DNA from: Candidatus Kaiserbacteria bacterium
GTDB lineage: Bacteria; Patescibacteriota; Minisyncoccia; Phycocordibacterales; UBA918
Length of the DNA: 64,000 bases
Direction of reading: 5' to 3'
NCBI GenBank assembly: GCA_016699245.1
Contig: CP064968.1
Location: forward strand, 283,386-347,385
The notes under the pieces are model-generated. The model was not told the origin of the DNA, made no database searches, and saw only the letters and a program-made list of their open reading frames with translations. Each line of letters begins with the position of its first letter. Within the stretch, counting starts at the first letter, position 1. The translations under genes and the position numbers were made by a program. Of the stretch, positions 41,901 through 62,205 are shown in pieces.

Positions 41901-44900
41901 TCGTGGTATCGCTTTCATCAGTAAGATTTGACGTGGTTGCCATATTCCATGCACCACCCAAAGCACCCACATCAGTCCAAGAGCCAACGTCACTGCATGT
42001 TGTAATCTTTGTTCCGTATTCTACGCGTAGCGCTGTGTCACCAGAAGTAACCGCGCCTTCATTTGAAACCTGTAGTCGAAGACGAACAGGTGACGTGAGT
42101 GCAATGTTTGCCGCAGGAGAATCCTCATTTCCTCCCGTGAACGATGTTGCGGTGGTCTCATCTCCATTGTCGTTTCTCCAGTGGTAGTGTGTCTGTGTGA
42201 GTACTGCTCCGAGCAGTGTCGTCTCACCACTCAGGTCACGAGTGATGGTTGGACTTACTGAGCCAACTGAGACGGTAAGATTCATAGATGGATTCTCCAT
42301 CACAATATTGATTGTCTCACCATTTTGCGCCGACGAGGTCACATCAAGCACTGGATACAGACAGAGCGTCGAGGTCGTACTTACGGTGACAGACCCTGTG
42401 AAGGTGGATGTTCCATTGAGAGATGAAAAACCATCGGTGTCAGTGGAGCCAAACTGGTCGTCGCCCACAGTATAGGATTCTCCAGCACAATCGTATGGTG
42501 CAGTAACATCAAGATCATACCTGAGTTCAATGTTATCGAGACCTGTCTCAGCATTCACGGTTCCATTTTCTGTAATAGTAATACTCGTAACGTCACGAGA
42601 GTCGACATTCTCTGTAATCACAAAACCTGTCCCAATATATTGGGTTGTCGTGGGAATAGTGAAATTGACCATCTGCGATGAGGTGGCAACGGTTACAAGT
42701 ATGTCAGCGGAAATGTTGGCTCGAGGATATACGCGATATTCAGAGAGTGGACTTCCCTGATCACTGACCCTAAAGCAGTATGTGTTCCCTTCAATAGCAG
42801 TTGTTGACGCAACAATGGAATATTCGAATTCAACAAACTCTGTAGTGGTGAGGACAATTGGACCTGTCTCCGACGATGTGGTTTTGACTGCGTAGTTCGG
42901 TGAGTGGAAAAGCGCATTTTCATCACTCACGGCTCCGTTTCCCTCTACAGTTATGTTTGTGGTACTATCCCCGTCATTTAAATTCCCTGATACTGACATA
43001 TCAAAGTCTCCACCAATAGCCCCCACATCTACCCAGCCTGTAGCAGCGTCACAGGTACTCGGGTTTGGAGCGTACTCAAGCCGGTACTGTATAGCAGGTG
43101 TCGAACTACTTCCTTCATTTGATACCTCAACACGCAGACGTGTTGTGGACCCCTGTCGCATTGTGGTGAGTGATGTGTCTTCGACACCGGCCGTTTTTGA
43201 TGTTGCATTTACCTCATCACCATCATCATTTCTCCAGTGATAATGCATAAGTGTCGGAGCGTCATTGTAAATTGTCGTCGTTCCAGGAATATCTTGAGAA
43301 GATACGGGGCCAGCCGTACCTCCCGTAACAAAAATATCAGATCCTGGGTTTTCAATAGATATTTCGATAGTAGAATCTCCATCAGCAGTATCCAGCACAT
43401 CAAAAACTACGTACACACAGAGGGTCCCCGTATCACTCACGGAGACAGTACTACCCGTAAAAGAAGACACTCCATCGGCGCCTGAGAAGCCATTCACATC
43501 TGTTGAACCAAAGCGACTCTCGGAACCATCATATGATTCGCTTGTACAGGTGTAGGGAGACGAGGTGTCCATTTCATAATACAATTTCACATTCGCAATA
43601 TCAGTTGATGCATCGACACTTCCGCTTTCCGTAAGGGTAATCCCTGTCACATTATACGAGTTTAAAACATCCGTATTGTATATAACAAACGTACCTCCAA
43701 TGTACACATTACTTGTACTTGCATTGACTGTTGCAACCTGATTATCAAGCGTCGGAATCGTAGGACTCGGGAGATCAATGAGTGTCGCCCCGTATACATC
43801 ATCAGTGACATCACCAAACCAAGTTGCATAAATCCTATCGCTACTTACTTGATTAAGGTCCATACCGTAGATACTCGTAGGGCTCGTGTTTACTGGGCCT
43901 TGTATAAATCCCCAACTCGCCATATCATCCGTTGACTTTCTCCAGAGTACACTCGCTGTATTAGCACTGTTTGCTATACCCTGCGCACTGTACGCAACAT
44001 ACACGTCATCATTGCTCGCATCGAGTGCGATGGCGACGTTCGTAAGTCCTGATACTGTCGATGCGACTACGTCAGTAGTAGCCGTCCAAACACCGCCCGA
44101 GTATTTGGCAGTGCGAATTTGGTCGTCACTGCCGGGTGTGGCATTTCGCGCAATGTATGCAAGATACACATCCCCTGTCGTTGGACTCACGGTAACTGCC
44201 ATACCTATGTCGTACGTTGTGTTATCAGGAGCATCAGAATCAATCGTCGTCGACGCAGCGTCCCACGTATTGGTGCCACTATCATATACTTTACTTTCGA
44301 TATTTTCTGCAGATGCGCCTATGTCACGATGTATCGCTATGATGTCGCCACCAGAGAGTGGTGCAAGTATTGCATAGTTGTTTGTACGTCCAAACGGATC
44401 TGTTCCTGCCTCATCCCAGCTTGCAGCGAGATTACAATTTGCAGTGCACATGAGGACAACAGAATCTGAAGCATCAATACTACTCGCGTACAGCGTTCCG
44501 TCTGTGGCTTTTGTTATTGAAATGGAGTTTGATCCAGCAGTAAGTGTCCCCCCTTGTGCAGGTGGACCTATGAATACACTCACGGGAGATGTACCCATAA
44601 GAAGAGTGTCCCCAGCAGTATCGAGACGGTTATACCAGACATCATCTGGATTCTCATCGAATGTTGCAATATGAATGTAGGTACCCGTGTCCCCTGGCGT
44701 CCACTGGTCGTACCATACCGTTACCATGGCACAATCAGTCTGTGCATCCACAGTGGTCGTTGCACTCCATGTCGTTCCGCCATCGGTAGTTTTTCTGTAC
44801 ACACAGTAGCCAGGAGCGTCGCGGAAGAATTTATACCCTGTCTGATCGTCGGTAAAAACAGTTTGTGATCCTGAAATATGGTGTGACGTCCCTGTTATAA

Positions 44901-46485: not shown

Positions 46486-48276
46486 CTAGATTTTAATTTC
46501 CTCGTTCAGAACATCCTCCAATGGTACATATGGCTCAACTACTAAGTCCTCAATTGATATTACTTCGTCTGTTGTAGTACCCTCACTGAAAGAAGGAATG
46601 ACTACATCACTCACTTCTACTGCCACTTCAGGTGTGCTTGAACTACTTTCATCCTCAGTAAAGACTGGTATCACTAAATCACCCTCATCGAGACCATCAT
46701 CAGTCGTAGTGCCTACGTCATCATTCTCGTCGGAGTCGGTCTTTGGCTTAGGCTGCGTAACAGGAGCAACAAGTGCGCGCTCCTCACCAGTTTGCTCGGG
46801 ATTAGGAATCTCTTCGGGAACAGGTGTAGGTCTTGATGCAAGATTGAGTACCTCACCACTCTTGAGGTCGTATCCACGAGTTTCTATATCTCCCGTGTCC
46901 ATTTTTGCATCATATACTAATACAAAGCGTGGATTTTCAATCGATCCACCGTCGGCGTCTTCGATGGTATGAGTGGCACCAGAGCGCATATCGTATACCT
47001 GCATACGCCATGCATCTTCTTCGAATGACTGCCACACGACATGGGTACCATTCACACTCGGAGCAATATCATGAGTGGTATTGTCAGTGAGCATTGTACG
47101 TTCTCCGTCTGTCTCAAGGAAAATCTCCCAGTCATTCCCTACCCACCCTTGCCATACTACCGCATCACCAAAGACACTTGGCTGCATGTTGTTATACCTA
47201 TCATCGGTGAGTTGTGTCTCTTCTCCAGTTTCAAAATCAAATTGAATGATTTGATATCGGCCATCTATAAGCCTGTGCCATACAGCAGTATTAGAGACTT
47301 CATCAAAGTATGGCGCCTCATCATCCAACTGATTATCAGTAAGTGTTACTAACTCTGCATTTTTTTCGGCATATATCTCTTTGTCACCCTCGGCGTCAAC
47401 TGCAGAAAAAATTCTGTCGTTGTTCTGAACACGAGGAGCATCTTTCGAAGTTGCACAGTAAAAACTACCATCACCAACCGTAGTACACTCATCTTTTGAA
47501 AATGAAAACTTGTTTTCATCATTTGTGACTACATGCACTATTGGCTCTTCCATAGTTGTGCTAGATGTAGTTTCTAGGGTAGCAGAGACTTCTTCTCCTA
47601 TATTTTCTGGGTCAGGTGTAACATCCTCAAGAGGAAGTACTTCCTCAGGCAAAGTGACCTTAGGGATTACTTCTTCTTGTGGGGTTTCAATTTCAACTAC
47701 TTCCTCAGTAGTACTTCCACGTTCAGACAAGACTTCATCAACAGTCACTTCGATAGGGGTTTTTGGCAACGATTCTGCTTTTTCTTCAGTGGCTGCCTCG
47801 GACAATTGTTTTGTTGTGTCCTCTATTACTTCTTCATATAGTGAATTAATTGTTTCCTCGAGTAGTGGTTCAGATGATGATTCTGTAACTTCCTCTATTA
47901 CGAATACAGGAGTTGCTTCTGGTTCTTCAAGTATAGACCCATTAGTGACATTTTCTGTCCCTTCAGTGACAATACTTGCTTCAATTGGTGTCAATGGAAC
48001 CTCTTCTGTGTCTGACACCTCAAGAGCATCATCTGCAATATCAACTACATCAGTGATACCGACTTCTTCTTGTTCTACTTCTGTATCTTGATCTCGTAAA
48101 ACTAATTCTCCATTATCCATAACAACCTCATCTGCAAATACAGGGGCGAGAGGCAGGAATACAAGTACAACGAGTAGCACAAGAGAAAAAGCACTGTATA
48201 CCAGATACTCTAAACCCCGCATTTCTTTATGCGCTCCTATCATTATATACCGTTGTTTCATTGCTCTACGTTCCAT
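46486..48276 (-). CDS. Membrane-anchored acidic protein with an E/T/V-rich low-complexity stalk and a C-terminal beta-propeller-like domain.
   Basis: N-terminal transmembrane helix LVYSAFSLVLLVVLVFLPL. Repeated ...VVWQ... blades (AVWHRLIDGRYQ, DAVVWQGWVGNDWEIFL, THVVWQSFEEDAWRMQVY). Confidence 0.5.
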   Translation of the reverse strand: MERRAMKQRYIMIGAHKEMRGLEYLVYSAFSLVLLVVLVFLPLAPVFADEVVMDNGELVLRDQDTEVEQEEVGITDVVDIADDALEVSDTEEVPLTPIEASIVTEGTENVTNGSILEEPEATPVFVIEEVTESSSEPLLEETINSLYEEVIEDTTKQLSEAATEEKAESLPKTPIEVTVDEVLSERGSTTEEVVEIETPQEEVIPKVTLPEEVLPLEDVTPDPENIGEEVSATLETTSSTTMEEPIVHVVTNDENKFSFSKDECTTVGDGSFYCATSKDAPRVQNNDRIFSAVDAEGDKEIYAEKNAELVTLTDNQLDDEAPYFDEVSNTAVWHRLIDGRYQIIQFDFETGEETQLTDDRYNNMQPSVFGDAVVWQGWVGNDWEIFLETDGERTMLTDNTTHDIAPSVNGTHVVWQSFEEDAWRMQVYDMRSGATHTIEDADGGSIENPRFVLVYDAKMDTGDIETRGYDLKSGEVLNLASRPTPVPEEIPNPEQTGEERALVAPVTQPKPKTDSDENDDVGTTTDDGLDEGDLVIPVFTEDESSSSTPEVAVEVSDVVIPSFSEGTTTDEVISIEDLVVEPYVPLEDVLNEEIKI

Positions 48277-48397
48277 AAACCAAGTATATTAGCCGTATTT
48301 TGATTTACTCTGATACCTCCACCAACTTAAATACAAAAGGTACCTATGACTAATAATAACAGTGTATCCCACTCTTATCCACATTATTATCAACAGT

Positions 48398-49138
48398 TTA
48401 GCGTGTGAATGAGTCGGCAAGAATAATTGAAAAATCTCTAAATGTCATGCGTCCATCGCCATCAAAATCGTATGTTTTCGCCTTAGTAAACCACGCAGCC
48501 ATGAAGGTACTAATATCCTTCAAGTCCACCTTCCCGTCACCATCCATGTCAGTAATGATAGAAATAGTTGCTTCAGCAGAAAGAACCCCATCCTCACCCA
48601 ACACCGCAATCTTAACTTCATTCTTTCCGTCATTTTCGGTTACGGGGATAGGCGTACCCTTACCATCCCCCGCCACCAACGCAGACTCACTAACAAAAAT
48701 ACGTGCACTCCCTGATTCAATTGCACGCAGTTTCACACGAGCAATGGAGTGTTCTCCAATGAAGCCTTTACGAAAAGTACCCCCACGAAGATATATTTTT
48801 CCGTCTTTGAAATAGGGTGTTTCTGTCCACAGTGTAATCACTGAGGTTCCTGTATCAATCCCCACCACCTCGATTTTATCTTCGGGGTACGAGAGCACAA
48901 GATCAACTGCATTAATTGCAACATGTACTGTAGCTGAGACTGTTACAAAAAATTCTTGATCACGAGTAACCGATGTCTCACTAGTTGCAATGGTGATATA
49001 TGAACTATTTTCTGATATAACTGAAGCAAGACTTGCAAAAAGCGCTGCAATCACTACTGCAGGGAAAGCATATTTGATGGTAGTAAACTGCTTTCCTGTA
49101 TACTTTGGGAAAAAAAGTTGCCAGAGTTTTTCAAACAT
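48398..49138 (-). CDS. Cohesin-like domain protein with a C-terminal dockerin-type (EF-hand-like) repeat pair.
   Basis: N-terminal transmembrane/signal segment. The cohesin-like beta-sandwich is FFVTVSATVHVAINAVDLVLSYPEDKIEVVGIDTG..ITLW. The dockerin is DMDGDGKVDLKDISTFMAAWF...YDFDGDGRMTFRDFSIILA. Confidence 0.6.
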   Translation of the reverse strand: MFEKLWQLFFPKYTGKQFTTIKYAFPAVVIAALFASLASVISENSSYITIATSETSVTRDQEFFVTVSATVHVAINAVDLVLSYPEDKIEVVGIDTGTSVITLWTETPYFKDGKIYLRGGTFRKGFIGEHSIARVKLRAIESGSARIFVSESALVAGDGKGTPIPVTENDGKNEVKIAVLGEDGVLSAEATISIITDMDGDGKVDLKDISTFMAAWFTKAKTYDFDGDGRMTFRDFSIILADSFTR

Positions 49139-49141
49139 ATA

Positions 49142-49801
49142 TTAGGGTGCCACTCGTGAACGAATCTCGTCAATACGTTTATTGTATACAACCAGAAGTT
49201 CGCCAATTTCTTGCGCATCGCGTGCAAGGGTTGTTACCTTCACACTTTGTACCGATTCTCCGGAAATGAGTGCTGTAACAATTTCACTCTGAAGACGCTC
49301 TTGATCACGAAGTGCTGTACTGCGTGATTTCTCAAGTGATACGATTTCTTCCCACTCCTTTTTGTAATACGATTCTATGTCACGTTCACTGAGTGTTGCA
49401 AGGAGTGTGAGTAATTTTGTGTATTGAGTAAATTCGCGCTCAAGTTTTGAGACCATGAGCGCTTTCCTTTCCGAGTAAAATCTACCGCAACTCTCTCTGA
49501 GAGTCTGTACCGCAATCAAATCACGTTTGGTGAGTGTTGCAAGTGAATTGAGAAGTTCTTCATACTCGCTTCTACGCGGACAATCACTAATAATAATTTC
49601 AGTAATATCATCGGCCCCATTTTGATCAGTAATTTCAGCAAGAGTTCGCATGTACTCTAGCTCCTCTGTAAGCATGGTATGCACCTCAGCCTCCATTGCA
49701 CGCTGATTATGATGCACAAACCATGCACCACCAACAAACACAAGTGCGATTCCCAAAAGAATAAATGAAATCAAAATGTGTATATGTATATTTTTTTTCA
49801 T
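49142..49801 (-). CDS. Hypothetical membrane-anchored coiled-coil protein, 219 aa.
   Basis: N-terminal transmembrane helix ILISFILLGIALVFVGGAWFV followed by a charged helical region. Confidence 0.45.
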   Translation of the reverse strand: MKKNIHIHILISFILLGIALVFVGGAWFVHHNQRAMEAEVHTMLTEELEYMRTLAEITDQNGADDITEIIISDCPRRSEYEELLNSLATLTKRDLIAVQTLRESCGRFYSERKALMVSKLEREFTQYTKLLTLLATLSERDIESYYKKEWEEIVSLEKSRSTALRDQERLQSEIVTALISGESVQSVKVTTLARDAQEIGELLVVYNKRIDEIRSRVAP

Positions 49802-49807
49802 AAATAA

Positions 49808-51553
49808 CTATTTCAGTACGTTTTCAATATCTTCAATTTCTTTACCAATCTTACTTTGTGCATTCTTTAGGTCATTCTCAATACGCTCAATGAGCGTTGC
49901 TTCTGCTTTCGTTAGTTTACCCTTTCGTGATTCTTTGAGCTCTGCAATACTCACATCTAAGTTTTGTATAATACTCGTAAATTCAAGCGAGAGACGTTCT
50001 TCTGCCTCAATGGTTTCCTTACGCACTTTTCGTTTCCTGAGTGCAAGACGATGCCAAAGATACCACGAGCCAAAGATAAGTACGATGAGAAGTGCAACAA
50101 TAGGCACAAGTACCGAGAGAATATTAATCACGATAGTTCCTGCAGCGACATAGCCTGGAATTTCAACAATAATTTTAATCGCATCAGATTTTTCACTGAC
50201 ACTTCCAAATGCATCACGGGCAACTGCGGTAATGGAATATACACCTGTTTCGAATTTGTTGTCCGGGATAAAACTAAACTCACCATCTGCATTACTCTGT
50301 ATTACATACGGATTTTTGTCAGAGTCACCTTCTGCTACGCTTACGATGGTATTGTCACTTGTACGTATCACTTCAATAGCAACTGTTGCATTCGGACGTG
50401 TCTTTCCTTTAATAACAGGAATGACTTCAGTATTTATGCGCGAGGGAAACTCGACAAAAGTAGGTTTTTCAAATGCATCAATAGTAAATGAATGACTCGC
50501 AATAGCAGTATTTCCTGCACTATCGAATGCTTCTACTGAAATAGTGTGGTACCCCGGCATAAGGGACTCGAGTGTATACTTTTTTAATCCCTCGGCGTCC
50601 TTGAAGATGATTGGCTCTTTGCCATCTATCTGAATTTTATATTCACGTAAAGGCGATACATCCTCAAAGGCAAAAAGAAGAGTTTTATTTGGATTATCCG
50701 CACGTGGTGTCTCTTCAGAAATTGTAAAGTTCTTTGGTGTTTCAGTATCTACACGCAATATATATTCAGCAATGCGTCCCCATCCGTCAGCATTTTTGAA
50801 TTGCAAATGAAAATATGAAACCCCCTCAGGAAGGTCTTCAAGTTTTTTTGAGGTAAGGGGTTCATCGTAAACCTTTGTAGGTATGGTACCCGACGTATTA
50901 TCAAGGAGCATGCGTACTGCAGTCACGCCAGCAGGCAAAGTCCAACTGAGTGCCGCATTCTTTTCCTTGTACCATACTGATGAATCAGGATGTGTACTTG
51001 AAACAATTTTTGGTGCTGAGGGTGTGTTTGCGGGCGGGATGTATTCTGGTGCTGGTGACTCACCTTTTGCTGCAATAGTAAATGTTCCTCCGTTCATCGA
51101 GGTGAGTACGTTGGTGCCCATGCCATCTGCAGCAAGCACGGAGCCACTTTTAAAAGTCACTTTGGGAGTGCCTGCGGCGAGTGGCTTAAAGGTAATAGAA
51201 ATAATAGTACCTGCAGCACCTTTGTAGCCCGTTGGTGAACCTCCGCCAAAAGAGATTGTTCCAGCGGTATTTGAGAATGTCGGCTCTTCAGTCCAGAGAT
51301 TAAAAATCGAACCACCACGAGTGACATTCGTCACCGTGAGTTCACGCGGATTAAAAGAAAGTTGCCCATCCGCTGCATTGACTGACTTTCCTTCAGTATT
51401 AAGCACGACCGAAACAGTAAAGATTGTACCTGCTGTATATACGCCTGTGTTTGGGCTTACTTTAAGTATTGCAGCCTCAACATGTTGAGTACCACCAATG
51501 TAACATCCAAGAAGAAGAGTTAATCCGAGTATGTACTTTTTAAATAAATTCAT
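49808..51553 (-). CDS. Cohesin-like domain surface protein with Ig-like domains, a C-terminal transmembrane helix and a cytoplasmic coiled-coil tail.
   Basis: Signal peptide. The cohesin-like N-domain is ILKVSPNTGVYTAGTIFTVSVVLNTEGKSVNAADGQLSFNP...GSIFNLWTEEP...ISFGGGSPTGYKG. Transmembrane helix IVINILSVLVPIVALLIVLIF. Confidence 0.6.
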   Translation of the reverse strand: MNLFKKYILGLTLLLGCYIGGTQHVEAAILKVSPNTGVYTAGTIFTVSVVLNTEGKSVNAADGQLSFNPRELTVTNVTRGGSIFNLWTEEPTFSNTAGTISFGGGSPTGYKGAAGTIISITFKPLAAGTPKVTFKSGSVLAADGMGTNVLTSMNGGTFTIAAKGESPAPEYIPPANTPSAPKIVSSTHPDSSVWYKEKNAALSWTLPAGVTAVRMLLDNTSGTIPTKVYDEPLTSKKLEDLPEGVSYFHLQFKNADGWGRIAEYILRVDTETPKNFTISEETPRADNPNKTLLFAFEDVSPLREYKIQIDGKEPIIFKDAEGLKKYTLESLMPGYHTISVEAFDSAGNTAIASHSFTIDAFEKPTFVEFPSRINTEVIPVIKGKTRPNATVAIEVIRTSDNTIVSVAEGDSDKNPYVIQSNADGEFSFIPDNKFETGVYSITAVARDAFGSVSEKSDAIKIIVEIPGYVAAGTIVINILSVLVPIVALLIVLIFGSWYLWHRLALRKRKVRKETIEAEERLSLEFTSIIQNLDVSIAELKESRKGKLTKAEATLIERIENDLKNAQSKIGKEIEDIENVLK

Positions 51554-52626
51554 GATTGTGTTTCTTCTTCGATTGTTTCTTCGTTCAGTAATCGTTGTTT
51601 ACGTCTCCAGAGTGCATAAAATACAAGCGCGGTTATAAGTATAATAGTCCCCGTTACGATTATAGTGGTAATGAGCATGTCACGAGACATACTACGAAGT
51701 GCAGTATCAGGAACCAGAGTTACAACACGAATGTTACCTGCCTTATCAATAGCTTTTACACGAATCGTGCTATTCAGGGTTTGATCCTTGAGTACATAGG
51801 GACTTTCAGTTTCAATCCACGGCGCGTCTGCACGTCCCCATCTGAATGCACTGAACTCTGCAAATGGTTCTTCCATTACTTCATAGTGATCAATACCAGA
51901 TTGTTTGTCGTTTGAATTAAAGACTATGAAGTATTCATTATTAAATGCAACATCGTCTTTGGTAAGAGTAATGGTAAAGTCTGAAGGAATTTCGTTGTCA
52001 CTGCGCACATCATCCTTCCACGTGTCTTGGATTTGGGTACCTGCGGTATCTGCTAGATTAATACGTGCTTCTTGGAGTTTGAGTGGTGCTGGAGTACCGC
52101 TCCCATCATGTAAGAGCACTTGTGAACTTTCATCGAGCCAAATACGAGGCGATTTATTATCGCTTCCGCTACCAATCGTGAAGCCTGGTGATTGAAAAAC
52201 GATTTCAAGTACCATATTGGTAAGACTTGGATCACCCGCGATACGTCCACAATAGCCACCAGGCAATCCTCCAGCAAAACGAATGGTGTGGTTTATCTCA
52301 TCAATTTTTGGAGATTCAACCCAGAGGTTCAAAATAGAATCACCGCGAGAAATATCGACAGCGTTGAGTGCTGCATCATAATGAATAGTAGCATCGACAG
52401 TATTAACACACTCTCCTTCATCAGTATCAAGGCGAAGTCCTACCGTGACACTATTTCCCCGAAAAATATCAGCGCTTCCAGGATCAAAGTACAATGTTGC
52501 AGCGTGCGCATGTGTGGCAATCACCCCAAAAAATAATACAGCAAAAAAAGCAATACGCACTCGTATATCCATCATATAACTAAAAGTATACCAAATCGTA
52601 ACCTTAAAAGGAGGGGGACTGTACAC
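51550..52626 (-). CDS. Cohesin-like domain surface protein with a C-terminal transmembrane anchor. Paralog of the gene at 49808..51553.
   Basis: ATLYFDPGSADIFRGNSVTVGLRLDTDEGECVNTVDATIHYDAALNAVDISRGDSILNLWVESP...RFAGGLPGGYCG. Transmembrane helix LITTIIVTGTIILITALVFYALW. 4-nt overlap with the downstream gene. Confidence 0.6.
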   Translation of the reverse strand: MYSPPPFKVTIWYTFSYMMDIRVRIAFFAVLFFGVIATHAHAATLYFDPGSADIFRGNSVTVGLRLDTDEGECVNTVDATIHYDAALNAVDISRGDSILNLWVESPKIDEINHTIRFAGGLPGGYCGRIAGDPSLTNMVLEIVFQSPGFTIGSGSDNKSPRIWLDESSQVLLHDGSGTPAPLKLQEARINLADTAGTQIQDTWKDDVRSDNEIPSDFTITLTKDDVAFNNEYFIVFNSNDKQSGIDHYEVMEEPFAEFSAFRWGRADAPWIETESPYVLKDQTLNSTIRVKAIDKAGNIRVVTLVPDTALRSMSRDMLITTIIVTGTIILITALVFYALWRRKQRLLNEETIEEETQS

Positions 52627-53261: not shown

Positions 53262-53660
53262 GGAGACAGAATCCGAAATTATTGTCGCTTCGCTCTGTAA
53301 TTTCGGGTCACGGCCTCAGAAAATATAGGGGCTTGGGAAATTGATTCCGTCTTCGCGCAAAAATTTTTAGGAAAATGCGCGGCCTCAGAAAATATTGGGG
53401 CTTGGTATATAGATTCGCTACGGGGTCTTACGACGTCACTTTTTCTTCCGGGGGGAAGAAAAGGTCTCCTTTTTCATTATGAGAGAAAAAGGAGACAGGC
53501 TCCAAAATTATTGTCCTTACAGGACCTGTCCACTCATTGGGTCTTTTGTTTCACTTCATTCACAAAAGCCCTCAATGAGTCTTGCAAAGTGACATTTAGT
53601 CCTGTCACGCGGCGTGGGCCGGCCTCCAGAAAATATAGGGGCTTGGATATAGGATTTTCC
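53262..53660. repeat. Composite dispersed repeats in a 700-bp intergenic region. Two S-units are 5' ggagacagNNtccRaaattattgtc, and three R-units are ggcctc(c)agaaaatatWggggcttgg.
   Basis: S1 is at 53262-53292 and S2 at 53491-53520. R1 is at 53312-53336, R2 at 53381-53405 and R3 at 53621-53646. A 12-bp perfect hairpin GTCTCCTTTTTC/GAAAAAGGAGAC lies at 53464-53496, and the palindrome CTGTGACgaaGTCACAG at 53679-53695. Confidence 0.7.
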
Positions 53661-53743
53661 TTTTTCTGTGACGAAGTCACAGAAAAAAGGAAAAACCCTT
53701 CTCGTGGTGGGAGATAGGGTTTTCCTTATTCTTGTACTGTTGC

Positions 53744-54880
53744 TTAGAACGTCGGAGTTGCTACATAGCGCAGTGTCGTAGTGTAGTCGTCACCTGCTTC
53801 TTGCAAAGCCGAAATTTGAATCTGATAGCCGACACGTGCAGCACCGGAGTTTATTGTTGTTCCATCAGAGGGACCATTATGGCCCATGATAGCAATCGGT
53901 GTTGTACTTCCAGAAACCCACTCATTCGAGCCGAACTGTACAGATCGGGCAAGAATTGCTGTGTCATTTGAGGTTAATCCCCAATGACCATAGGAATTTG
54001 GATTTGCAATCAGACCTCCTGGACCCTGCCATGCCGAAGGCGTAACAGTGTTTGTCCCATCGATGAAGCCATCGATAGTCGCACCAGTTGTAGATTGCAA
54101 GCTGCCTGCTTGTTGAACTGTTACGGTGTAGCCTACTGAGGCGTTCGTCGAAACAGAGAGATCATGCGCAAGTGTACGTGATACTCCGATTGGCAAATTG
54201 CCAAAAGGAAGTGTTGTTGGGGTTGAGGTTGCAATAGTGGTCGTGGGACTACCGTTTACTGTTGAACTGGAATTTACTCCAGTGACCGTAAAGGTGAGTG
54301 ACGTATCCACATTTGCCGAAACCGTAACCTGGTCAACAATTGCAACACGCATCTCTCCTGAATCTTGCATCGTACCCGCAATTGTAATTGGGTATGATGT
54401 CGTAGCAGATGGATTTACAATTTTTATAGCACCGCCAGTAGCATTTGAACCAATCTTAATTATCATATCTGATGATGAAGCGGTTCCGCCGTCTGTTGGT
54501 GTCTCGAATGTAATCGCATCTGTACCAATACCAGTCACTCCCCATGTACCTGCCCCACTCGCACCCGCAAGCGTTTGATCAACCGTATTAACACTGAGGT
54601 CAATATCGCCGATTAAAACTCCTGAAGTGTCGAATTGTGAAGCAAAAGTAACAGTAAAGTTTGAGCTTGTTGCCATACCATTTGGTAGTTCAAAAGCTAT
54701 TGTGTGGTTTGATGTTACAGAAGGTGCTGAGTTGCTCAGCGTATCACTTGCGTTGGTGATTGATGCCGCCTCCGCAAAGCGGAAGAATGTTGGAAGACCA
54801 GTACTCCAAAGGAATAAGGCAAGTCCAACCGTCATCGCAACAGCCTGAAGAGTTCGCACGGTTCTTGCCGTGTGAGTCAT
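53744..54880 (-). CDS. Secreted protein, 378 aa. Its N-terminal leader and C-terminal domain of about 150 aa are homologous to the termini of the 2465-aa giant protein.
   Basis: N-terminus ...FFRFAEAAS (giant: HIAEAAEA). C-terminus SLTFTVTGVNSSSTVNG..TTLPFGNL...VGYTV...HWGL...TLRYVATPTF, against the giant's SLDFTMEGIASSTVVEG..TTLPFGKL...EGYQI...AAWTT...RIRYVSVPIF. Confidence 0.6.
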   Translation of the reverse strand: MTHTARTVRTLQAVAMTVGLALFLWSTGLPTFFRFAEAASITNASDTLSNSAPSVTSNHTIAFELPNGMATSSNFTVTFASQFDTSGVLIGDIDLSVNTVDQTLAGASGAGTWGVTGIGTDAITFETPTDGGTASSSDMIIKIGSNATGGAIKIVNPSATTSYPITIAGTMQDSGEMRVAIVDQVTVSANVDTSLTFTVTGVNSSSTVNGSPTTTIATSTPTTLPFGNLPIGVSRTLAHDLSVSTNASVGYTVTVQQAGSLQSTTGATIDGFIDGTNTVTPSAWQGPGGLIANPNSYGHWGLTSNDTAILARSVQFGSNEWVSGSTTPIAIMGHNGPSDGTTINSGAARVGYQIQISALQEAGDDYTTTLRYVATPTF

Positions 54881-55175: not shown

Positions 55176-55350
55176 TTGAAATAGAGAATAGAAAATATGG
55201 AATATGGAATAGGACAACACTTCGTGTTGATTTTATATTCCATATTTTCTATCTTCTATTCTCTATTTTCTATTCCCTATCTTCTATCTTCTATTCCCTA
55301 TTTTCTATTTTCTATTCTCTATCTTCTATCTTCTATTCTCTATTCACTAT
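55176..55350. repeat. Palindromic microsatellite element E1. Arrays of the 8-mer AGAA(A/T)ATA / TTCTAT(C/T)T in inverted orientation around a GC core caacacttcgtgttg.
   Basis: Lies directly downstream of the stop of gene 55352..56479. The two arms are (agaataga/aatatgga)n and (ttctatct/ttctattc)n. Confidence 0.8.
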
Positions 55351-55351
55351 T

Positions 55352-56479
55352 CTACCCCGTCCAGTTGAACAAAAGGATTGAAAAGTCCTCGAGGCCTACT
55401 TTGCCGTTTTGATTGATGTCAGCGGGTGGGTTTGAATTGCCACCGGGGGTTCCCCACCAGAAAACAAGGATAGAGAAGTCTATAAGATTTACTTTTCCAT
55501 CACGATTGAGGTCGGCGTTACTTGTTGCTTTCCCTTCTACACCCACAAAAAGTGAAAGTACAGTGCCGTAGGGGCTTTCTATTTTTAAGGCTCCCGTACC
55601 AGAGACAAATCGCGCTTTGAGCGTATGTGTATCTACTGATACAGTACCCGTATTAAACGGTATAGACCATGCACCAAGTGCGTCTGAAGTAGTAGTGAGC
55701 ATCTTCTTTCCATTATCAATGGAAACTTCTACGGTGACACTGGGCATAGTTTGCCCACTGAGCGTAATGGTATCACCCGGATTTACATTCACCGTAGATG
55801 CACGGAGTGTTGGTGGCACCATGATGCCATTAAGACTTGTTACAGCCCCCTGCGTTACATCAAACGTCGTGTTCACCGTGAGTGAGCGGGTTCCCGATGA
55901 GTCTGTCGCCCAGAAACTAAATGATGCAGTACCGGGATCAGTCGTCACATTAAACTGAAACTCACCCCTGCTGTTGGTACGCACAGTTCCTACCGTGTCA
56001 CCGTCAATCAAAATATTTACTGTAGCGTTCGGAAATGCTTTTCCAGTGATGGTTACTTGTGTTTCACCCAATGGCTCATCGCGACCACCGCTCCCTGAAC
56101 TACCGCCTCCTCCCGTAGACCCTCCTCCACTATCAGCTGTTTGGCGACTACAGTCACCAGCACAAAAGTCTCCATCATCATTATTTCCATCGTCACATAC
56201 TTCTCCTTCAAGTGTCTGTAAAATGGCGTCACCGCAGTAATTACCATAAAGACAATCTGTGCCACACTGCCTACCTGCAATAGTCGTACTATATGTCCCA
56301 ATCTCTCCCGGAACATCACATTCCTCACCTTCATTAACAAGAGTGTCTCCACAAATGCTAATACGAACTGTCGTTGTGGAAACACTAATATTTGCAAATA
56401 CATCTGATGCACAACTAAAGATAATTATTGCATAAAACACTGGTACAAATAGCCGCATTGAGACGCATAGCATATGCAT
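55352..56479 (-). CDS. Secreted protein with Cys-rich CxxC/ECD repeats, a Gly-rich linker, Ig-like domains and C-terminal dockerin repeats.
   Basis: Signal peptide. The Cys-rich region is CGDTLVNEGEECDVPGE...CGTDC...YCGDAILQTLEGEVCDDGNNDDGDFCAGDCS, followed by GGGSTGGGGSSGSGG. The dockerin is DLNRDGKVNLIDFSILVFWW...DINQNGKVGLEDFSILLFNW. Confidence 0.6.
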   Translation of the reverse strand: MHMLCVSMRLFVPVFYAIIIFSCASDVFANISVSTTTVRISICGDTLVNEGEECDVPGEIGTYSTTIAGRQCGTDCLYGNYCGDAILQTLEGEVCDDGNNDDGDFCAGDCSRQTADSGGGSTGGGGSSGSGGRDEPLGETQVTITGKAFPNATVNILIDGDTVGTVRTNSRGEFQFNVTTDPGTASFSFWATDSSGTRSLTVNTTFDVTQGAVTSLNGIMVPPTLRASTVNVNPGDTITLSGQTMPSVTVEVSIDNGKKMLTTTSDALGAWSIPFNTGTVSVDTHTLKARFVSGTGALKIESPYGTVLSLFVGVEGKATSNADLNRDGKVNLIDFSILVFWWGTPGGNSNPPADINQNGKVGLEDFSILLFNWTG

Positions 56480-56485
56480 AGCGAA

Positions 56486-57409
56486 TTACTTTCTTCTTCG
56501 TGTCCGAATGAATATAAGGAATGGTACGAAGAGTATAAAGAGCACTGGGATGATTACTGAAAGTTGATGGGGGAGTGAAAGACCAAGGAATCCGAATCCC
56601 GCAGTTTGTAAAGTACCATATGGCAATACACTAAGATTGACCTCACCACTGAGCTTTACATCTTCTTCATTCAAAATTTCAAAACGAGCGAGGTAACTCC
56701 CTGCTGGAAGTTTCGTGGGGATTTCAGCAAAAATAGATTCAGTTGCAAATGGATCTACAGTATCAATACTTCCCTTTTTATGAGCTTCTTCAAGAAGCAC
56801 ATTACCTGTCTTATCGTAAATTCTAAACACAACATCAGACGGTGCAATCTCTACGTTACCTATGTTCTCAATAAGCATTTCGAATCGAATTTTTCCCGGG
56901 AAATATAGCCAGCCAACTTTGTGTCCTTCGTTTAAGTCAGATACACCAATTTTACGAACTTTGAAGTCCTTAATTTTTTTATCAATAACAGTGAGGTCGA
57001 CATCGAGTTGAGCACCAAGAGAAATACTCACCGCACCTCCAGCAACCTGATCATCAGGGGCACCAGTTTTGATGCGAATATTCCCTTTATATTGTTTAAA
57101 ATCAGCATCCTTTGGAACAGTCACTTTAACGGTCATTGGAACTTTTTGAACACCTTGTGGCAAGAGAAATTCGTTACCTTCATTGATAACTATCCATCCA
57201 TTTATTTCAGGAACATCAACATTCACTGTTGCTTTGAGGGCGGTGGTAGGATCACTACGGACAAGATAAATAGTCTGTTCGTATACAGAATTACGGGTGA
57301 GACTTACGTTCGTTACATATGGTGGCGTTACACCAAAACCTGCATACGTAGTATGCACAAAAACAAAAAGTACCGCTACTGAAAAAATGATTGAGCGAAA
57401 CAGTGCCAT
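56486..57409 (-). CDS. Signal peptide, beta-rich domain and C-terminal transmembrane anchor surface protein. Paralog family A, third member.
   Basis: Signal peptide ending TTYAG, a GVTPPYV motif, and a C-terminal transmembrane helix IIPVLFILFVPFLIFI followed by RTRRRK. Confidence 0.5.
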   Translation of the reverse strand: MALFRSIIFSVAVLFVFVHTTYAGFGVTPPYVTNVSLTRNSVYEQTIYLVRSDPTTALKATVNVDVPEINGWIVINEGNEFLLPQGVQKVPMTVKVTVPKDADFKQYKGNIRIKTGAPDDQVAGGAVSISLGAQLDVDLTVIDKKIKDFKVRKIGVSDLNEGHKVGWLYFPGKIRFEMLIENIGNVEIAPSDVVFRIYDKTGNVLLEEAHKKGSIDTVDPFATESIFAEIPTKLPAGSYLARFEILNEEDVKLSGEVNLSVLPYGTLQTAGFGFLGLSLPHQLSVIIPVLFILFVPFLIFIRTRRRK

Positions 57410-57520: not shown

Positions 57521-59389
57521 CTACCACTGTAATGGTTCACCGACGAGTGCTGTAAATGTGTTCTGACCGGTATATGCCCCTGCAAAAGTAATAGTTCCTG
57601 GAACGCGTATACCCCAATATGCATCACGTTGCGCTGGAGTTGAAGTTGATGTCGACTTAGGTATGTTAATTTCAATCTCCTTTGGAGTCGTTGAGGAAAG
57701 TGTATTTCCAAGGCCTTCAGCGGTAGTATACGCTACACTCGAAGTAGCAAACACTTGCTCGTACTCTGGAATAGTTGCGGTGAGTGATGGAATACAAGGT
57801 GACGCATTTGTGTAGGTACTACACATCGACGATCCTGTAACATCCTTGTCGAGACCAACATTACCTGTTGCTACCATAGTTGTCGTTGCTGTAAGGACTT
57901 CATTTTTCTGTCCCGGTTCGAGTGCTCCGTATGGAATTTGAATTGTAGTGAGATTAAAGGCGAGAAGAGGTAATACATCAACTCCTACAGTACTTTCAGC
58001 ATATGCTCCTACAGCAGTATCATCATCTATACCTTGCACTTGAGCACGCCAGTCGTCTGTGGTGTAGAAGGACGCCGTTGTACTTCCTGTTGGGTCAGCT
58101 ATGTACCACATCGGGAATGTACATTCATAAAGAATATCTGAGTCAGATGAACCGGAACAGGTTGTTGATGAGGCGGTACACACAAGATTCCATGAAGTCG
58201 GTGCAATGTCACTTGGATAACAGTCATTGGGATCGAAGATTGAAGATGATGTACACGTTGTAGAACTATTTCCTGTAGGTGTTCGGTAAATTGATAGGTT
58301 GTAATCAGTAATTTCATCGTCATCTAGACCACCAAATGCATCACAACTATTATTATCTGAGGCTACAAATGATAGAGTAAATCCAGTTGTCTCACTTGAT
58401 TCATTAATCAAAACAATGTCATTTGTGATTGGTTGGGTGAGAGAAATACTAGTTCCACTCACTGTTGGAGCAACGTTGTTTACCGTAAGCGTATTCACTT
58501 GACCTTGTTCACCTCCCGATGCTTCAAATCCATGATTGTCAATGATGTACGGGTATACTCCAAAGTCAGTGTCCTGGGTTGGAATAATTATGGTATACGA
58601 TGCTGAAGCATCATCATCTACATATATGGTTGACGTTGCAAGTGTTACAGCAAGTGGACCATTACATGAGTTTGTTGTTGTTGAAAAGCCAGCCACAGAA
58701 CAAACGGTGAGAAATACTTGGTCGAATTGAGCACCACCAGAACTGTCGTTATCTGTTGAGGTACTATAGAAAGTTACCGCTTGACCAGGGATGCCAGTTA
58801 CAGGATCAGAGAATGCGGTGAAAGTTGGACGATGATTGACTTCAAATGGCGATGAGTTCGTAGCGTTTACACCTTGAGAATATGAGACGCTACATCGTGG
58901 GTTACCAGCGTTTCCGTCACAAATCCAGGAATACCATGCATTTGATTCAGCCCAGCCATCAAGAGTCGTTGTTGCTGCTACTGCTAGTGAACCACTCGTT
59001 GTGGTGCCTGACACTGCCCATTGGACACCAGAGGTACATCGCGGTGCACCGCCTGACGTAGATGTTGGCATAGCGCTGGTATCACAGATGAGAAGCCAGT
59101 AGTCTTCAGAGTTTGAGTCGGTGCCGATTGCTTTCCAAGAAATTACGTCGCCAGCGTTAGTTGGGTTTGTAATGGAGGATTCTATTATTTCAGTAGTTGA
59201 TGCCGTCCATGCAGGAGGGGTATTTACAACAATAACCGTCGTGCTCGCAGTACTTTGCGCATCTGCTTGCTTTATCTGGCTTTCACCAAGATTAAAAATG
59301 AATACTATTGCAAAAACTACTACACCAATGAATGTGGTATACACAGTAATTTTACCTGCCGTACGTAAATGATCTGTGTTATATGACAT
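57521..59389 (-). CDS. Large secreted Thr/Ser-rich beta-domain protein, 622 aa, N-terminally anchored.
   Basis: N-terminal transmembrane helix ITVYTTFIGVVVFAIVFIF followed by repetitive T/S-rich Ig-like regions. No catalytic motif. Confidence 0.45.
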   Translation of the reverse strand: MSYNTDHLRTAGKITVYTTFIGVVVFAIVFIFNLGESQIKQADAQSTASTTVIVVNTPPAWTASTTEIIESSITNPTNAGDVISWKAIGTDSNSEDYWLLICDTSAMPTSTSGGAPRCTSGVQWAVSGTTTSGSLAVAATTTLDGWAESNAWYSWICDGNAGNPRCSVSYSQGVNATNSSPFEVNHRPTFTAFSDPVTGIPGQAVTFYSTSTDNDSSGGAQFDQVFLTVCSVAGFSTTTNSCNGPLAVTLATSTIYVDDDASASYTIIIPTQDTDFGVYPYIIDNHGFEASGGEQGQVNTLTVNNVAPTVSGTSISLTQPITNDIVLINESSETTGFTLSFVASDNNSCDAFGGLDDDEITDYNLSIYRTPTGNSSTTCTSSSIFDPNDCYPSDIAPTSWNLVCTASSTTCSGSSDSDILYECTFPMWYIADPTGSTTASFYTTDDWRAQVQGIDDDTAVGAYAESTVGVDVLPLLAFNLTTIQIPYGALEPGQKNEVLTATTTMVATGNVGLDKDVTGSSMCSTYTNASPCIPSLTATIPEYEQVFATSSVAYTTAEGLGNTLSSTTPKEIEINIPKSTSTSTPAQRDAYWGIRVPGTITFAGAYTGQNTFTALVGEPLQW

Positions 59390-59461
59390 ATACTAATATG
59401 AACTGATTACCATAATTCTACTTTATTCAAGCTCAACAAAACCTTAGTTATACACAGTTTG

Positions 59462-60670
59462 TTATTCATAACGAATAGCATCGAGTGGATTAAGTAAGGA
59501 CGCACGACGTGCGGGAAAAATTCCTGTTAAATACCCCACTGAACCCGAGAATAAAGCAATGAATACAAGGAATCCTATAGGAAACTGGAAGAGATCAACA
59601 CTCTTCCCTCCGAACTGACTCGCTGCAACATTCAACATGATATTCACAACAAATCCCAAGGTTACCCCCATGAGTATCCCACTTACTCCACCAAGAAAAC
59701 CCACAATGATTGACTCGGACACAAACAAAAACTTAATATCGCGTGGTGAAGCGCCTATAGTACGCATGATACCAATCTCTTTGGTTCGCTCCAAAAGAGT
59801 CACTGTCATGGTATTAAACATACCAATAGCAGATACAAGAAGTGCAATACCACCAAACGTCGCCAAAACAACTTGAATTCCTTGGAAAATCTTGGATGCT
59901 TGCTCTACTGTCTTTGAAAGCGCAGTCACGCGATATCCTTCTTCAATAAGTGATTTTTCAACGTCTGCCAAAAATTCGTTCGATACAACCTTCACTTGTG
60001 CTCTGTCGTACTCCTCTATTCCTACATAGTTACGGAGTTCAGGAAGCATCATGAGTACATTAAGCACACCTTCTTCTTTGGTAATTCCTTTTACACGGTA
60101 TTTTTTCTCAATATTGATTTCCGTAACTAGGTCTGTGCCATCATCTGTAGGAACAAGGAGTCTAAAGGACACCTCCTGTCCAATAAAAGATTCAGCATCT
60201 TCAACACCGAAGAGTTTAAGAACGGCTGGTGAGAGCATGACTTCGCCCGTATTAGCAATATCTTCCTCAACAAAGGTGTCTCCGAAGGATGCAGTAATAC
60301 CAGCATATCGTAGATATGCTGGTTCAGCGCCCTGGATAAAGATATTTCCCGTAAGACCCTTGTAGGTAATCAGAGCGGGAAAACGGGCTAACGGCGCTGC
60401 ATCTTCAATATTTACATTTTTTTCAAAGCCTTGAATCACTTCGTCTGTAATTGAAAGGTTACGTGCACCAGTAGCAGACACACCAAGTGAAAGAAGGCTG
60501 TCTCCAAAGACGATTTGTTCAAGAATGATTTGCTGAAGTCCAAAACCAAGACCCACCAAAATCACCACAGCACCTGTACCAACACCCATACCAAGGATAG
60601 TCAGCCAGGTACGCATCGGATTCGTTTTAAACATGCGCGTTGAAAGACGCGCGAGATCCGCTACTTGCAT
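59462..60670 (-). CDS. ABC transporter permease, FtsX-like (MacB/LolCE family).
   Basis: 402 aa. N-terminal transmembrane helix, a large extracytoplasmic domain and three C-terminal transmembrane helices (TVTLLERTKEIGIMRTIGAS...). Confidence 0.8.
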   Translation of the reverse strand: MQVADLARLSTRMFKTNPMRTWLTILGMGVGTGAVVILVGLGFGLQQIILEQIVFGDSLLSLGVSATGARNLSITDEVIQGFEKNVNIEDAAPLARFPALITYKGLTGNIFIQGAEPAYLRYAGITASFGDTFVEEDIANTGEVMLSPAVLKLFGVEDAESFIGQEVSFRLLVPTDDGTDLVTEINIEKKYRVKGITKEEGVLNVLMMLPELRNYVGIEEYDRAQVKVVSNEFLADVEKSLIEEGYRVTALSKTVEQASKIFQGIQVVLATFGGIALLVSAIGMFNTMTVTLLERTKEIGIMRTIGASPRDIKFLFVSESIIVGFLGGVSGILMGVTLGFVVNIMLNVAASQFGGKSVDLFQFPIGFLVFIALFSGSVGYLTGIFPARRASLLNPLDAIRYE

Positions 60671-60683
60671 ATACTACATATAG

Positions 60684-60880
60684 TAATAGAAAATTGAGAA
60701 TATGGAATAGAGAATATAGGATAGAAAATAGAAGATAGAAAATAATAGGAAATAGAGAAGATATAGATAAATATTCAACCATCTCTATCCTCTATCCTCT
60801 ATCTTCTATCTTCTATTATCTATTATCTATTTTCTATTTTCTATCTTCTATCTTCTATTCTCTATCTTCTATCTTCTATA
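60684..60880. repeat. Palindromic microsatellite element E2. Same 8-mer inverted arrays. The core is atattcaacc, not a GC palindrome.
   Basis: Fills the entire gap between the ABC ATPase stop (60883) and the permease start (60670). Confidence 0.8.
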
Positions 60881-60882
60881 TA

Positions 60883-62205
60883 TTACGTCTTATAACTCAC
60901 ATCCACACCAAGAGCGATGAGTTTTTCCATATACCGTGCTAAGTCATCACTTGTCTTTTCATCGAGATGGAGCCCGCCATTTTTATATGTAGCCATGAGT
61001 TGTGCATGAAACTCTTTTTCGCCATGAATACCCGATAATCGGTCTGCAATCATTGTCGTAAGATTGGCTTCAGTGACTTTTGTAAGCGGAACACTGTGGT
61101 GTTGAAGAAGATACTCACGAACACGTTCAGCAAACTTATGCTGAGAGAAAAAGGCCGCATCAGAATCATTGTCATTGCGAAAACGCTTGATATCAGTTGA
61201 CTGTTTAACAATCGATACCGACACATTAGCCATATGTTCTGCGATTTTTCTGTCGACACCCACTCCCCCTTCATCATATTTTTTCACGAGTGCATCGACA
61301 AATAGTTTTTTATGTATCTTACCCATGATGAGTAAGTGGATTGCTTTTTCAATACGCGAAAGCTGACTAAAGGTATACTCTTGTGTAAGAAAGTTGGTGA
61401 GACTCTTCACACGTAATGTATCAACCGAGTCATACGGGAAAAGACGTGCGAGTTCCTCTAACTCAGTAACGATGGTCTCCCCTTCTCGTACCGGCTTTAT
61501 TTGTTTGCGCTGTGGATTGACCACTTCTCGCACAATAAAACCATCTTTAAGGTAATAGACTCGATGTGCATAAGAAAGGTGTGCGGCGTTGTGTGACACC
61601 ATGATAATGGTGCGCATATCAAACGTATTGATCTCATCAATCTTATCCATAACCTGTTGAGTAGAAATACTGTCAAGGTTACCGGTAGGCTCGTCAGCAA
61701 GAAGTATCTGTGGGTCGTTAACCATTGAACGAGCTACCGAAACACGCTGCTGTTGACCTCCTGAGAGCATAGAGGGGATCTTGTGAGATACCGCACCCAC
61801 ACCAAAACGGTCAAGGAGCATCTGCGCACGACGCTCACGAGTTGCCTTGTTCGCATCACAAAAAATCATGGGGAGCGCTACGTTGTCGAGTACGGAGAGA
61901 GAGCCAATGAGGTTGAAAGACTGGAAAATAATACCCATCACATACCGTTGAAAATACACACGCTCCTGAGGTGGATATGCATAAATATCATCGCCACGAA
62001 TAAGAAGTGTCCCATCACCCGGTGGCAAAGAGCCCTGTATGGCATACATGAGTGTCGACTTACCACATCCAGAAGGACCGAAGAGAATAATGTATTCCCC
62101 TTCATAGATGTCGGTATTGACGTGCTGGAGCGCTTTAAACTCATTCGACTTCCCTTTGTTGTAGGTAATCGTGAGGTCACGGCATGTGATAAGTGGTTTT
62201 GCCAT
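60883..62205 (-). CDS. ABC transporter ATP-binding protein (MacB/LolD-like) with a C-terminal extension of about 210 aa of unknown function.
   Basis: Walker A GPSGCGKST, signature LSGGQQQRVSVARSM, Walker B LLADEPTGNLD and H-loop MVSHN. Residues about 230-440 show no recognisable motif. Confidence 0.85.
   Translation of the reverse strand: MAKPLITCRDLTITYNKGKSNEFKALQHVNTDIYEGEYIILFGPSGCGKSTLMYAIQGSLPPGDGTLLIRGDDIYAYPPQERVYFQRYVMGIIFQSFNLIGSLSVLDNVALPMIFCDANKATRERRAQMLLDRFGVGAVSHKIPSMLSGGQQQRVSVARSMVNDPQILLADEPTGNLDSISTQQVMDKIDEINTFDMRTIIMVSHNAAHLSYAHRVYYLKDGFIVREVVNPQRKQIKPVREGETIVTELEELARLFPYDSVDTLRVKSLTNFLTQEYTFSQLSRIEKAIHLLIMGKIHKKLFVDALVKKYDEGGVGVDRKIAEHMANVSVSIVKQSTDIKRFRNDNDSDAAFFSQHKFAERVREYLLQHHSVPLTKVTEANLTTMIADRLSGIHGEKEFHAQLMATYKNGGLHLDEKTSDDLARYMEKLIALGVDVSYKT

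Follow-up and report, generated by a model that had tools for sequence, protein, structure and literature searches.

We analysed a 64,000-nucleotide (nt) stretch of the Candidatus Kaiserbacteria contig CP064968.1 (the window), in which two secreted proteins of very different size, one of 378 amino acids (aa), here p378, and one of 2465 aa, here the giant, carry the same C-terminal domain (the C-domain) and are encoded close to three predicted membrane-anchored proteins (o37860, o36568 and o56486) that appear to be divergent homologues of the WxLIP proteins of Firmicutes WxL (Csc) clusters. These genes lie in a cell-surface cluster of ~26 kb with strong synteny. Its main genes and features, with the transmembrane (TM) helices given in protein coordinates, are as follows.

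53744..54880, minus strand: p378, 378-aa secreted protein, identical to the NCBI hypothetical protein IPH92_01615 of Candidatus Kaiserbacteria
54767..54880, minus strand: signal peptide of p378, aa 1-38, with predicted cleavage between AEA and AS, read from the sequence; predicted helix at aa 2-26
54341..54751, minus strand: N-terminal immunoglobulin (Ig)-like domain of p378, aa 44-180
53747..54325, minus strand: C-domain of p378, aa 186-378, candidate WxL-like module with the C-terminal end ...LQEAGDDYTTTLRYVATPTF, from BLASTP against the giant and the family alignment
38869..46266, minus strand: the giant, 2465-aa secreted protein of 257 kDa, with a signal peptide (aa 1-43), repeats and the C-domain
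38872..39444, minus strand: C-domain of the giant, aa 2275-2465, with the C-terminal end ...LQDAGVYESRIRYVSVPIF, from BLASTP and the family alignment
37860..38921, minus strand: o37860, WxLIP-like anchor 1, 353 aa, with a signal peptide, two beta-sandwich domains, a TM helix (290-308) and a charged tail
36568..37863, minus strand: o36568, WxLIP-like anchor 2, 431 aa, organised as o37860, with a TM helix (290-308) plus a second hydrophobic helix (388-406)
56486..57409, minus strand: o56486, divergent WxLIP-like anchor of family A5, 307 aa, with a TM helix (283-301) and the tail RTRRRK, upstream of p378 with o55352 between them

In p378, a signal peptide, whose cleavage site was placed by the AxA rule, precedes a BslA/YweA-like Ig domain, and the C-domain follows. 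AlphaFold2, given a deep alignment, modelled the protein at a mean pLDDT (predicted local distance difference test) of 95.2; the signal helix leads into the Ig-like domain (aa 44-180), and nine strands build the beta domain at aa 195-376. With a shallow alignment, the C-domain reached a pLDDT of about 45 and the fold was not obtained. The model's Foldseek matches, among them SdrD, ClfA and integrin calf domains, are proteins with tandem Ig domains. The giant matches Pfam BNR_2 (E=3e-9) and contains two ~400-aa BNR/Asp-box repeats, two ~355-aa repeats and additional repeats. Its internal duplications relate aa 46-440 to aa 449-845, each with a TTDGGTTW Asp-box, and aa 841-1195 to aa 1196-1570, and further related modules are located at about aa 1957-2104 and 2108-2267.

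A first-pass annotation made from the sequence alone had assigned homologous modules to both ends of p378 and the giant, and the C-terminal half of this claim was borne out. Residues 194-378 of p378 align with residues 2291-2465 of the giant at 36% identity (E=1e-15, composition-adjusted BLASTP), and the control against shuffled sequences that the annotation had proposed gave a Smith-Waterman score of 195, compared with 40.5 +/- 6.9 for 1000 composition-preserving shuffles (z=22.4). The N-terminal half did not hold: the first 50-55 residues score 22 vs 18.8 +/- 3.6 (z=0.9) and are ordinary signal peptides. Of the F-x-AEAA motif described for both leaders, the A-E-A signal-peptidase-type site followed by A is indeed shared, but the giant reads H-I-AEAA. 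The middle of p378, thought to be a distinct region of about 200 aa, is actually a single Ig-like domain of ~140 aa. The expectation that the C-domain would occur in relatives proved correct, as detailed below.

An alignment of 20 C-domain sequences, comprising both window copies and database relatives, contains 14 invariant columns and ends in the conserved pattern ...LQEAG.(D)Y.T.[LI].Y[IV]..P.F. When the C-domain profile was searched against 1.84 billion representatives of 50% identity clusters, 2722 clusters were retrieved at E<=1e-3, of which 495 reached E<=1e-30. The 150 matches listed are 158-3762 aa long, with complete proteins spanning 250-3762 aa; in these complete proteins, the match reaches the last residue, a Phe or Tyr, and the proteins end in ...Y-x-x-x-[LIV]-x-Y-[IV]-x-x-P-x-F/Y. 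Exceptions to this extreme C-terminal position are a few truncated fragments and one protein (P0250). No consistent Pfam family was found across 102 diverse members, NCBIfam gave no match to the C-domain, and the family profile retrieved no PDB sequence at E<=10. Neither p378 nor the giant, both of which end in ...P-x-F, has an LPXTG motif or a TM helix at the C-terminus, and no SLH or CWB2 match was detected by Pfam in the window proteins or the 102 members. The C-domain is a real domain of ~190 aa, a beta-sandwich common to small and giant secreted proteins. No further copies were found among the other open reading frames (ORFs) of the window. The secreted protein o57521, which ends in ...AGAYTGQNTFTALVGEPLQW, was considered as a third carrier and rejected, given that BLASTP found nothing and the hhalign score of 22.2 (P=0.049) is at noise level.

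The products of o37860, o36568 and o56486 all comprise a signal peptide, a beta-rich ectodomain of ~250 aa and, at the C-terminal side, a hydrophobic helix followed by a basic tail. They have the WxLIP architecture, that is, a signal peptide, two tandem Ig-like domains and a C-terminal TM helix in about 320-380 aa, with lengths of 353, 431 and 307 aa. The first two are paralogues (E=1e-20), forming family A4, to which o56486 (A5) is related at the profile level only (hhalign probability 98%, E=8e-14). As a single sequence, o36568 matches the Pfam family WxLIP_PGBD (DUF916) with E=0.021, below the gathering score, aa 41-141 aligning with positions 19-120 of the 121-position profile; among A4 members collected from related loci, 29 of 30 match PF06030 at E<=1, the best at 2.1e-9. 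For independent comparison, we assembled WxLIP and WxL reference sets from 11 annotated plasmid loci, namely pBc10987, whose genes BCE_A0044 to A0046 are a bona fide WxL cluster verified by Pfam, and ten others from Bacillus, Listeria, Enterococcus, Lactobacillaceae and Terribacillus. The plasmid loci served as the reference in place of a homology search with the BCE_A0044 WxL domain, which retrieved 6 proteins only. The A4 profile aligns with the 11 Firmicutes WxLIPs at a probability of 98% (E=1.9e-13) over template columns 26-285, which cover both the DUF916 and the DUF3324 domains. For A5, the direct match has a probability of 53% (E=1.3e-4) and is accompanied by a collinear second match, so that the connection of o56486 to WxLIP is indirect, through A4 (98%), besides the direct 53%. 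Because PF06030 is found in 29 of 30 A4 members and the profile alignments extend across both domains, we interpret the three proteins, on sequence and profile grounds, as true, divergent WxLIP homologues with the predicted organisation DUF916-DUF3324-TM.

Gene context was examined in 80 related loci from metagenome-assembled genomes (MAGs) of Kaiserbacteria/Paceibacteria. In the arrangement found in the window (type A), the genes are on one strand, in the order MacB-type ABC permease, o57521, o56486, o55352 (dockerin), p378, o51550, o49808, o49142, o48398, o46486, giant, o37860, o36568, redoxin and further genes. A second arrangement (type B), at another site of the same genomes, has an o36568-type gene right behind a p378 paralogue. 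For 53 C-domain genes, at least 3.5 kb of flanking sequence was available on either side; 51 of these have a WxLIP-like gene within 3.5 kb, located directly downstream (22 cases), further downstream (4) or two genes upstream (25). We additionally inspected five C-domain proteins of 373-3762 aa, four of which are unlike the p378 family in length or architecture, the fifth being a giant from an already sampled MAG; these came from six loci, five with downstream sequence. In all five, the next gene is WxLIP-like (E=1e-30 to 1e-102), including that beside the 3762-aa protein, and in one locus (L096) the neighbour of the C-domain gene is matched by a hidden Markov model (HMM) built from Firmicutes WxLIPs alone (E=4e-8). 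The lineages also correspond, A5 occurring with type-A p378 and A4 with the type-B p378 paralogues and the giants; o56486 (A5) is syntenic in 25 loci.

Two of the WxLIP-like genes of the window come immediately after the giant, and a single gene separates p378 from the third. The stop codon of the giant lies within the o37860 ORF, and the o37860 stop and the o36568 start overlap by 4 nt; these overlaps suggest co-translation. By the published definition, a Csc cluster contains at least one WxLIP gene and at least two WxL genes not more than 4 genes apart (Hassan 2023), and p378 and the giant are separated by five genes, one above this limit. Because the pairing of C-domain and WxLIP-like genes is conserved, we consider that the combination of a small protein, a large protein and a WxLIP gene matches the gene logic of Csc/WxL clusters. 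In the type-B loci (L014-L080, for example L016:9986-12321), the second p378 paralogue is 40-56% identical and is present in many of the sampled Kaiserbacteria/Paceibacteria genomes; further downstream, these loci encode a dockerin-type protein of ~620 aa and an o49808-like protein.

WxL clusters, which combine one small and one large WxL protein with a WxLIP protein, are almost confined to Bacilli (PMC9772566, PMC10599100). We propose, with a probability of about 0.6, that the C-domain and the WxLIP-like proteins constitute a non-covalent surface-display system of the WxL/WxLIP type in Patescibacteria. After export by the Sec pathway, the C-domain would dock non-covalently on the ectodomain of the cognate membrane-anchored WxLIP-like protein, and possibly on peptidoglycan too. 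This docking would display the variable N-terminal cargo on the cell surface, namely the BslA-like Ig domain in the case of p378 and the BNR propellers and repeats in the case of the giant. In such a system, p378 may be an abundant surface component, and the giant could act as an adhesin or a glycan-binding arm.

The closest points of comparison come from the reference clusters. As in Csc/WxL clusters, small and large secreted proteins have in common a beta-rich C-terminal domain of ~160-200 aa, and an adjoining gene encodes a protein with a signal peptide, two Ig domains and a C-terminal TM helix, here a demonstrable WxLIP homologue. The order WxL, WxLIP, large WxL in the reference plasmids resembles that of a C-domain gene followed by a WxLIP-like gene, and the motifs FG, G-aromatic-x-hydrophobic and, near the C-terminus, Y-x-x-x-L-T-aromatic are collinear. 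Unlike in the known clusters, the host belongs to Patescibacteria rather than Lactobacillales/Bacillales, the small protein has a BslA-like Ig domain in addition, we noticed no gene for an LPXTG partner, and the cluster includes cohesin/dockerin genes and a MacB-type ABC transporter. Large WxL proteins are 500-1000 aa long (PMC9772566) and reach up to 1514 aa in our reference plasmids, whereas the giant has 2465 aa and the family extends up to 3762 aa. Anchoring of S-layer proteins through SLH or CWB2 domains in monoderms is similar in that a conserved terminal module holds variable proteins non-covalently at the envelope, and the composition of p378 is S-layer-like; however, no such domain matches here, and the proposed partner is a membrane protein rather than a secondary cell-wall polymer.

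The relationship of the C-domain itself to the WxL domain is less firm than that of the anchors to WxLIP. The WxL domain has 160-190 aa and two Trp-x-Leu motifs and is always C-terminal (PMC9772566, PMC10599100). Like WxL, the C-domain is located at the extreme C-terminus of proteins with a signal peptide. In a profile comparison of 144 C-domains with 21 reference WxL domains, hhalign found two collinear local matches with scores of 21.0 and 19.9 (P=0.023 and 0.034), both above all 150 column-shuffled controls (maximum 15.5) and situated on the two motif regions, FG...G-W/Y-x-L/V and the Y-x-x-x-L-T-W/Y near the C-terminus. Furthermore, when a Firmicutes WxL HMM was run with filters off against 2191 sequences, the top 24 were all C-domain proteins matched in the expected region, the best with E=0.006 and the first decoy with 0.85. 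Some verified WxL proteins themselves have Tyr at the Trp sites, in the segments GYTVTV, GYRVNV, LTYSIVTGP and, at the C-terminus, YESKLTYSIVTGP; the p378 counterparts of such segments are "GYTVTV" and "YTTTLRYVATPTF".

Several observations weigh against a WxL/WxLIP identity. The Pfam WxL family (PF13731) matches neither p378 nor the giant at E<=0.1 and none of the 102 C-domain members at E<=1, whereas the positive controls BCE_A0046 and BCE_A0044 scored 2.6e-13 and 4.4e-10. The Trp-x-Leu motifs are absent: both Trp are replaced by Tyr/Phe and the 'Leu' positions by Val/Ala, giving Tyr/Phe-x-Val and Tyr-x-Ala; the equivalent positions are G-Y251-T-V and L-R-Y372-V-A in p378 and G-Y2347-Q-I and I-R-Y2459-V-S in the giant, spaced by 121 and 112 residues, respectively, compared with about 68-106 in WxL. 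Against the same profiles, unrelated beta-rich families of this cluster score about 22 in hhalign, which the individual C-domain scores of about 20-21 do not exceed, and the 'AG.Y...' motif of the C-terminal strand is common in many beta-sandwich surface proteins. On the side of the anchors, the N-terminal strand NQIDKxxxYFDLK, conserved in Firmicutes WxLIP (PMC10599100), is missing, and an 11-column gap occupies its place in the profile alignment of the family from the candidate phyla radiation (CPR, Patescibacteria). The solved WxL structure was not among the fold matches listed for p378. Because there is no Pfam match and no Trp-x-Leu motif, while the hhalign matches are collinear and the HMM ranks C-domain proteins first, we regard homology of the C-domain to WxL, and its descent from WxL, as suggestive and unproven.

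The first-pass annotation had likened the locus to WxL/DUF916 (Csc) clusters, with flanking proteins that combine a signal peptide, a beta-rich domain, a C-terminal TM helix and a basic tail. This architecture was recovered for the ORFs starting at 36568, 37860 and 56486, and the analogy gains from both their relationship to WxLIP and the pairing in 51/53 plus 5/5 loci. Its comparison of the C-terminal domain with the WxL type stands as far as the extreme C-terminal position in proteins of very different length is concerned, and fails as regards PF13731 and Trp-x-Leu. The label 'novel surface-display family' would be overstated if the C-domain is a divergent WxL domain; a phylum-specific variant of the WxL/WxLIP system is the better description.

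Alternatively, the C-domain could be a self-assembly or polymerisation module, in which case p378 subunits would build an S-layer-like coat or a fibre formed, for example, by donor-strand exchange. The WxLIP-like proteins would then serve as an assembly platform or chaperone instead of a stoichiometric anchor, and the giant, joined by the same module, would be a minor subunit that forms the tip or an adhesin. Such a role would suit a protein that is unusually conserved (63-90% identity across the 120 best matches), whose mature form of 34 kDa is acidic (pI 4.1), free of Cys and rich in T/S/G/A, and whose gene, preceded by a 470-nt region and followed by a terminator of its own, seems to be monocistronic; the failure of AlphaFold2 to fold the C-domain alone from a shallow alignment would also be in line with it. 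However, the p378 monomer folds fully with the deep alignment, at a pLDDT above 95, and its secondary structure shows no open groove. Pfam scans of the cluster revealed no sortase, usher or pilin-type signals, and the strict one-to-one adjacency with TM-anchored WxLIP homologues suits anchoring at least equally. We consider self-assembly unlikely. The specific candidate of a donor-strand-exchange fibril of the TLP-1b type (CryoSeek) was rejected, this match ranking only 51st and reflecting a generic Ig-like fold. The resemblance of p378 to BslA/YweA coat proteins and to the tandem Ig domains of MSCRAMMs and pilins is likewise at the fold level only, that of a generic Ig-like sandwich; identity is about 10%, p378 has no LPXTG, isopeptide or thioester motifs, and no hydrophobic cap is evident.

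A second alternative, which we find more doubtful again, is that the C-domain binds the wall (peptidoglycan or a glycopolymer) by itself and is unrelated to WxL, the WxLIP-like genes being merely co-regulated and their products making no contact with it. The lack of a significant sequence or fold match to WxL would fit this view, as would the many other surface proteins of the cluster (cohesin/dockerin, Ig-like), and the WxL domain of Bacilli is itself reported to bind peptidoglycan (PMC9772566). Mere co-regulation accords poorly, however, with the persistence of WxLIP-like pairing in very divergent loci with cargo from 373 to 3762 aa, with the fact that every paralogous C-domain lineage has its own WxLIP-like lineage, and with the overlapping ORFs. 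Finally, although p378 and the giant are both T/S/G-rich, the idea that they resemble each other only through the composition of low-complexity, Thr/Ser-rich surface proteins can be set aside, because the alignment stands at z=22 against composition-preserving shuffles with E=1e-15, and the family has 14 invariant columns, 495 clusters at E<=1e-30 and a confident AlphaFold2 fold.

The surroundings of these genes contain the following additional features.

53681..53726, minus strand: terminator-like hairpin and U-run directly 3' of the p378 stop (RNA fold -22.8 kcal/mol, z=-4.4, 0/200 shuffles as stable)
55352..56479, minus strand: o55352, secreted Big_6/dockerin protein between the A5 anchor and p378 (Pfam Dockerin_1 E=5.8e-8, Big_6 E=9e-12)
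46486..52626, minus strand: o51550, o49808, o49142, o48398 and o46486, the five genes, conserved in the cluster, that separate p378 from the giant
57521..62205, minus strand: upstream cluster genes, by synteny, comprising o57521 (secreted protein of 622 aa without a family match) and a MacB-type ABC transporter

A terminator consensus scan missed the hairpin behind p378 because its loop exceeds 8 nt; together with the intergenic stretch of 470 nt on the 5' side of the gene, it makes p378 appear to be a monocistronic unit with its own terminator. In the 720 nt 3' of p378 (53024-53744), no RNA family was detected by Rfam, which reported one tRNA only in the scan of the whole window. The sole ORF there, at 52686-53024 (112 aa, TTG start), is poorly supported and has no homologue among the 80 related loci. 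On the upstream side (55180-55352), about 15 tandem 7-nt units (TATTTTC on the plus strand) start right after the o55352 stop, at a distance of ~360 nt upstream of p378. A small hairpin there is flanked by an inverted partial copy of short length (55180-55212); the hairpin reads CAACAC-gaag-TGTTG (55215-55229). The array and hairpin could be a terminator or a regulatory element.

Synteny makes o55352 a conserved member of the cluster, outside the C-domain/WxLIP pair. The product of o48398 has weak Cohesin and Dockerin_1 matches, and its cohesin-like N-domain is shared with o49808 and o51550, both of which end in a TM helix. This suggests a second surface assembly, of the cohesin-dockerin type, in a CPR bacterium (48398-52626, 55352-56479), conserved in >60 related loci. 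The MacB-type transporter consists of an ATPase (60883-62205) and a MacB_PCD + FtsX permease (59462-60670); in 24 related loci, synteny with the surface-protein cluster extends to the permease gene, and a role of the transporter in export or assembly is possible. Among the reference loci, the WxL/WxLIP clusters of pBc10987, pT1, pCFSAN074383, pCH_187-b and pLGUG1 (L081, L085, L088, L090 and L091; Bacillus, Terribacillus, Listeria) adjoin conjugation genes, including those for a type IV secretion system ATPase, a VirD4-like protein, TrbL and a thioester-domain adhesin, which hints at a role of plasmid WxL/WxLIP proteins in mating-pair contact, beyond host adhesion.

To our knowledge, the building of the envelope and the attachment to hosts are largely unknown in CPR/Patescibacteria, and most of their large surface proteins are unannotated. 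Full-text literature searches found no paper that ties WxL or DUF916 to Patescibacteria/CPR. What is new here is an unannotated partner domain and a new host phylum, the anchor being a divergent member of a known family. The C-domain, present in at least 2722 clusters at 50% identity, is tied by gene order to WxLIP homologues, which yields a testable anchoring mechanism, and it offers a simple sequence tag for listing displayed surface proteins, including giants of up to 3762 aa. A system described almost only in Lactobacillales/Bacillales would thereby be extended to a distant phylum. The finding also bears on whether the TM helix of WxLIP sits in the bacterium's own membrane, with which the basic C-terminal tails of the proteins described here are in keeping. 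More speculatively, and with a minority chance of being right in our estimate, the C-domain/WxLIP-like pair might be the general means of anchoring proteins to the envelope in Paceibacteria/Kaiserbacteria-type Patescibacteria, a deep-branching sister of the Firmicutes WxL system, with the highly conserved p378 as the long-sought major surface-layer or coat protein of ultra-small cells and the BNR giants as host-attachment arms. If this were true, the ~190-aa C-domain would be a sortable tag that identifies all proteins displayed on the surface of these uncultured episymbionts.

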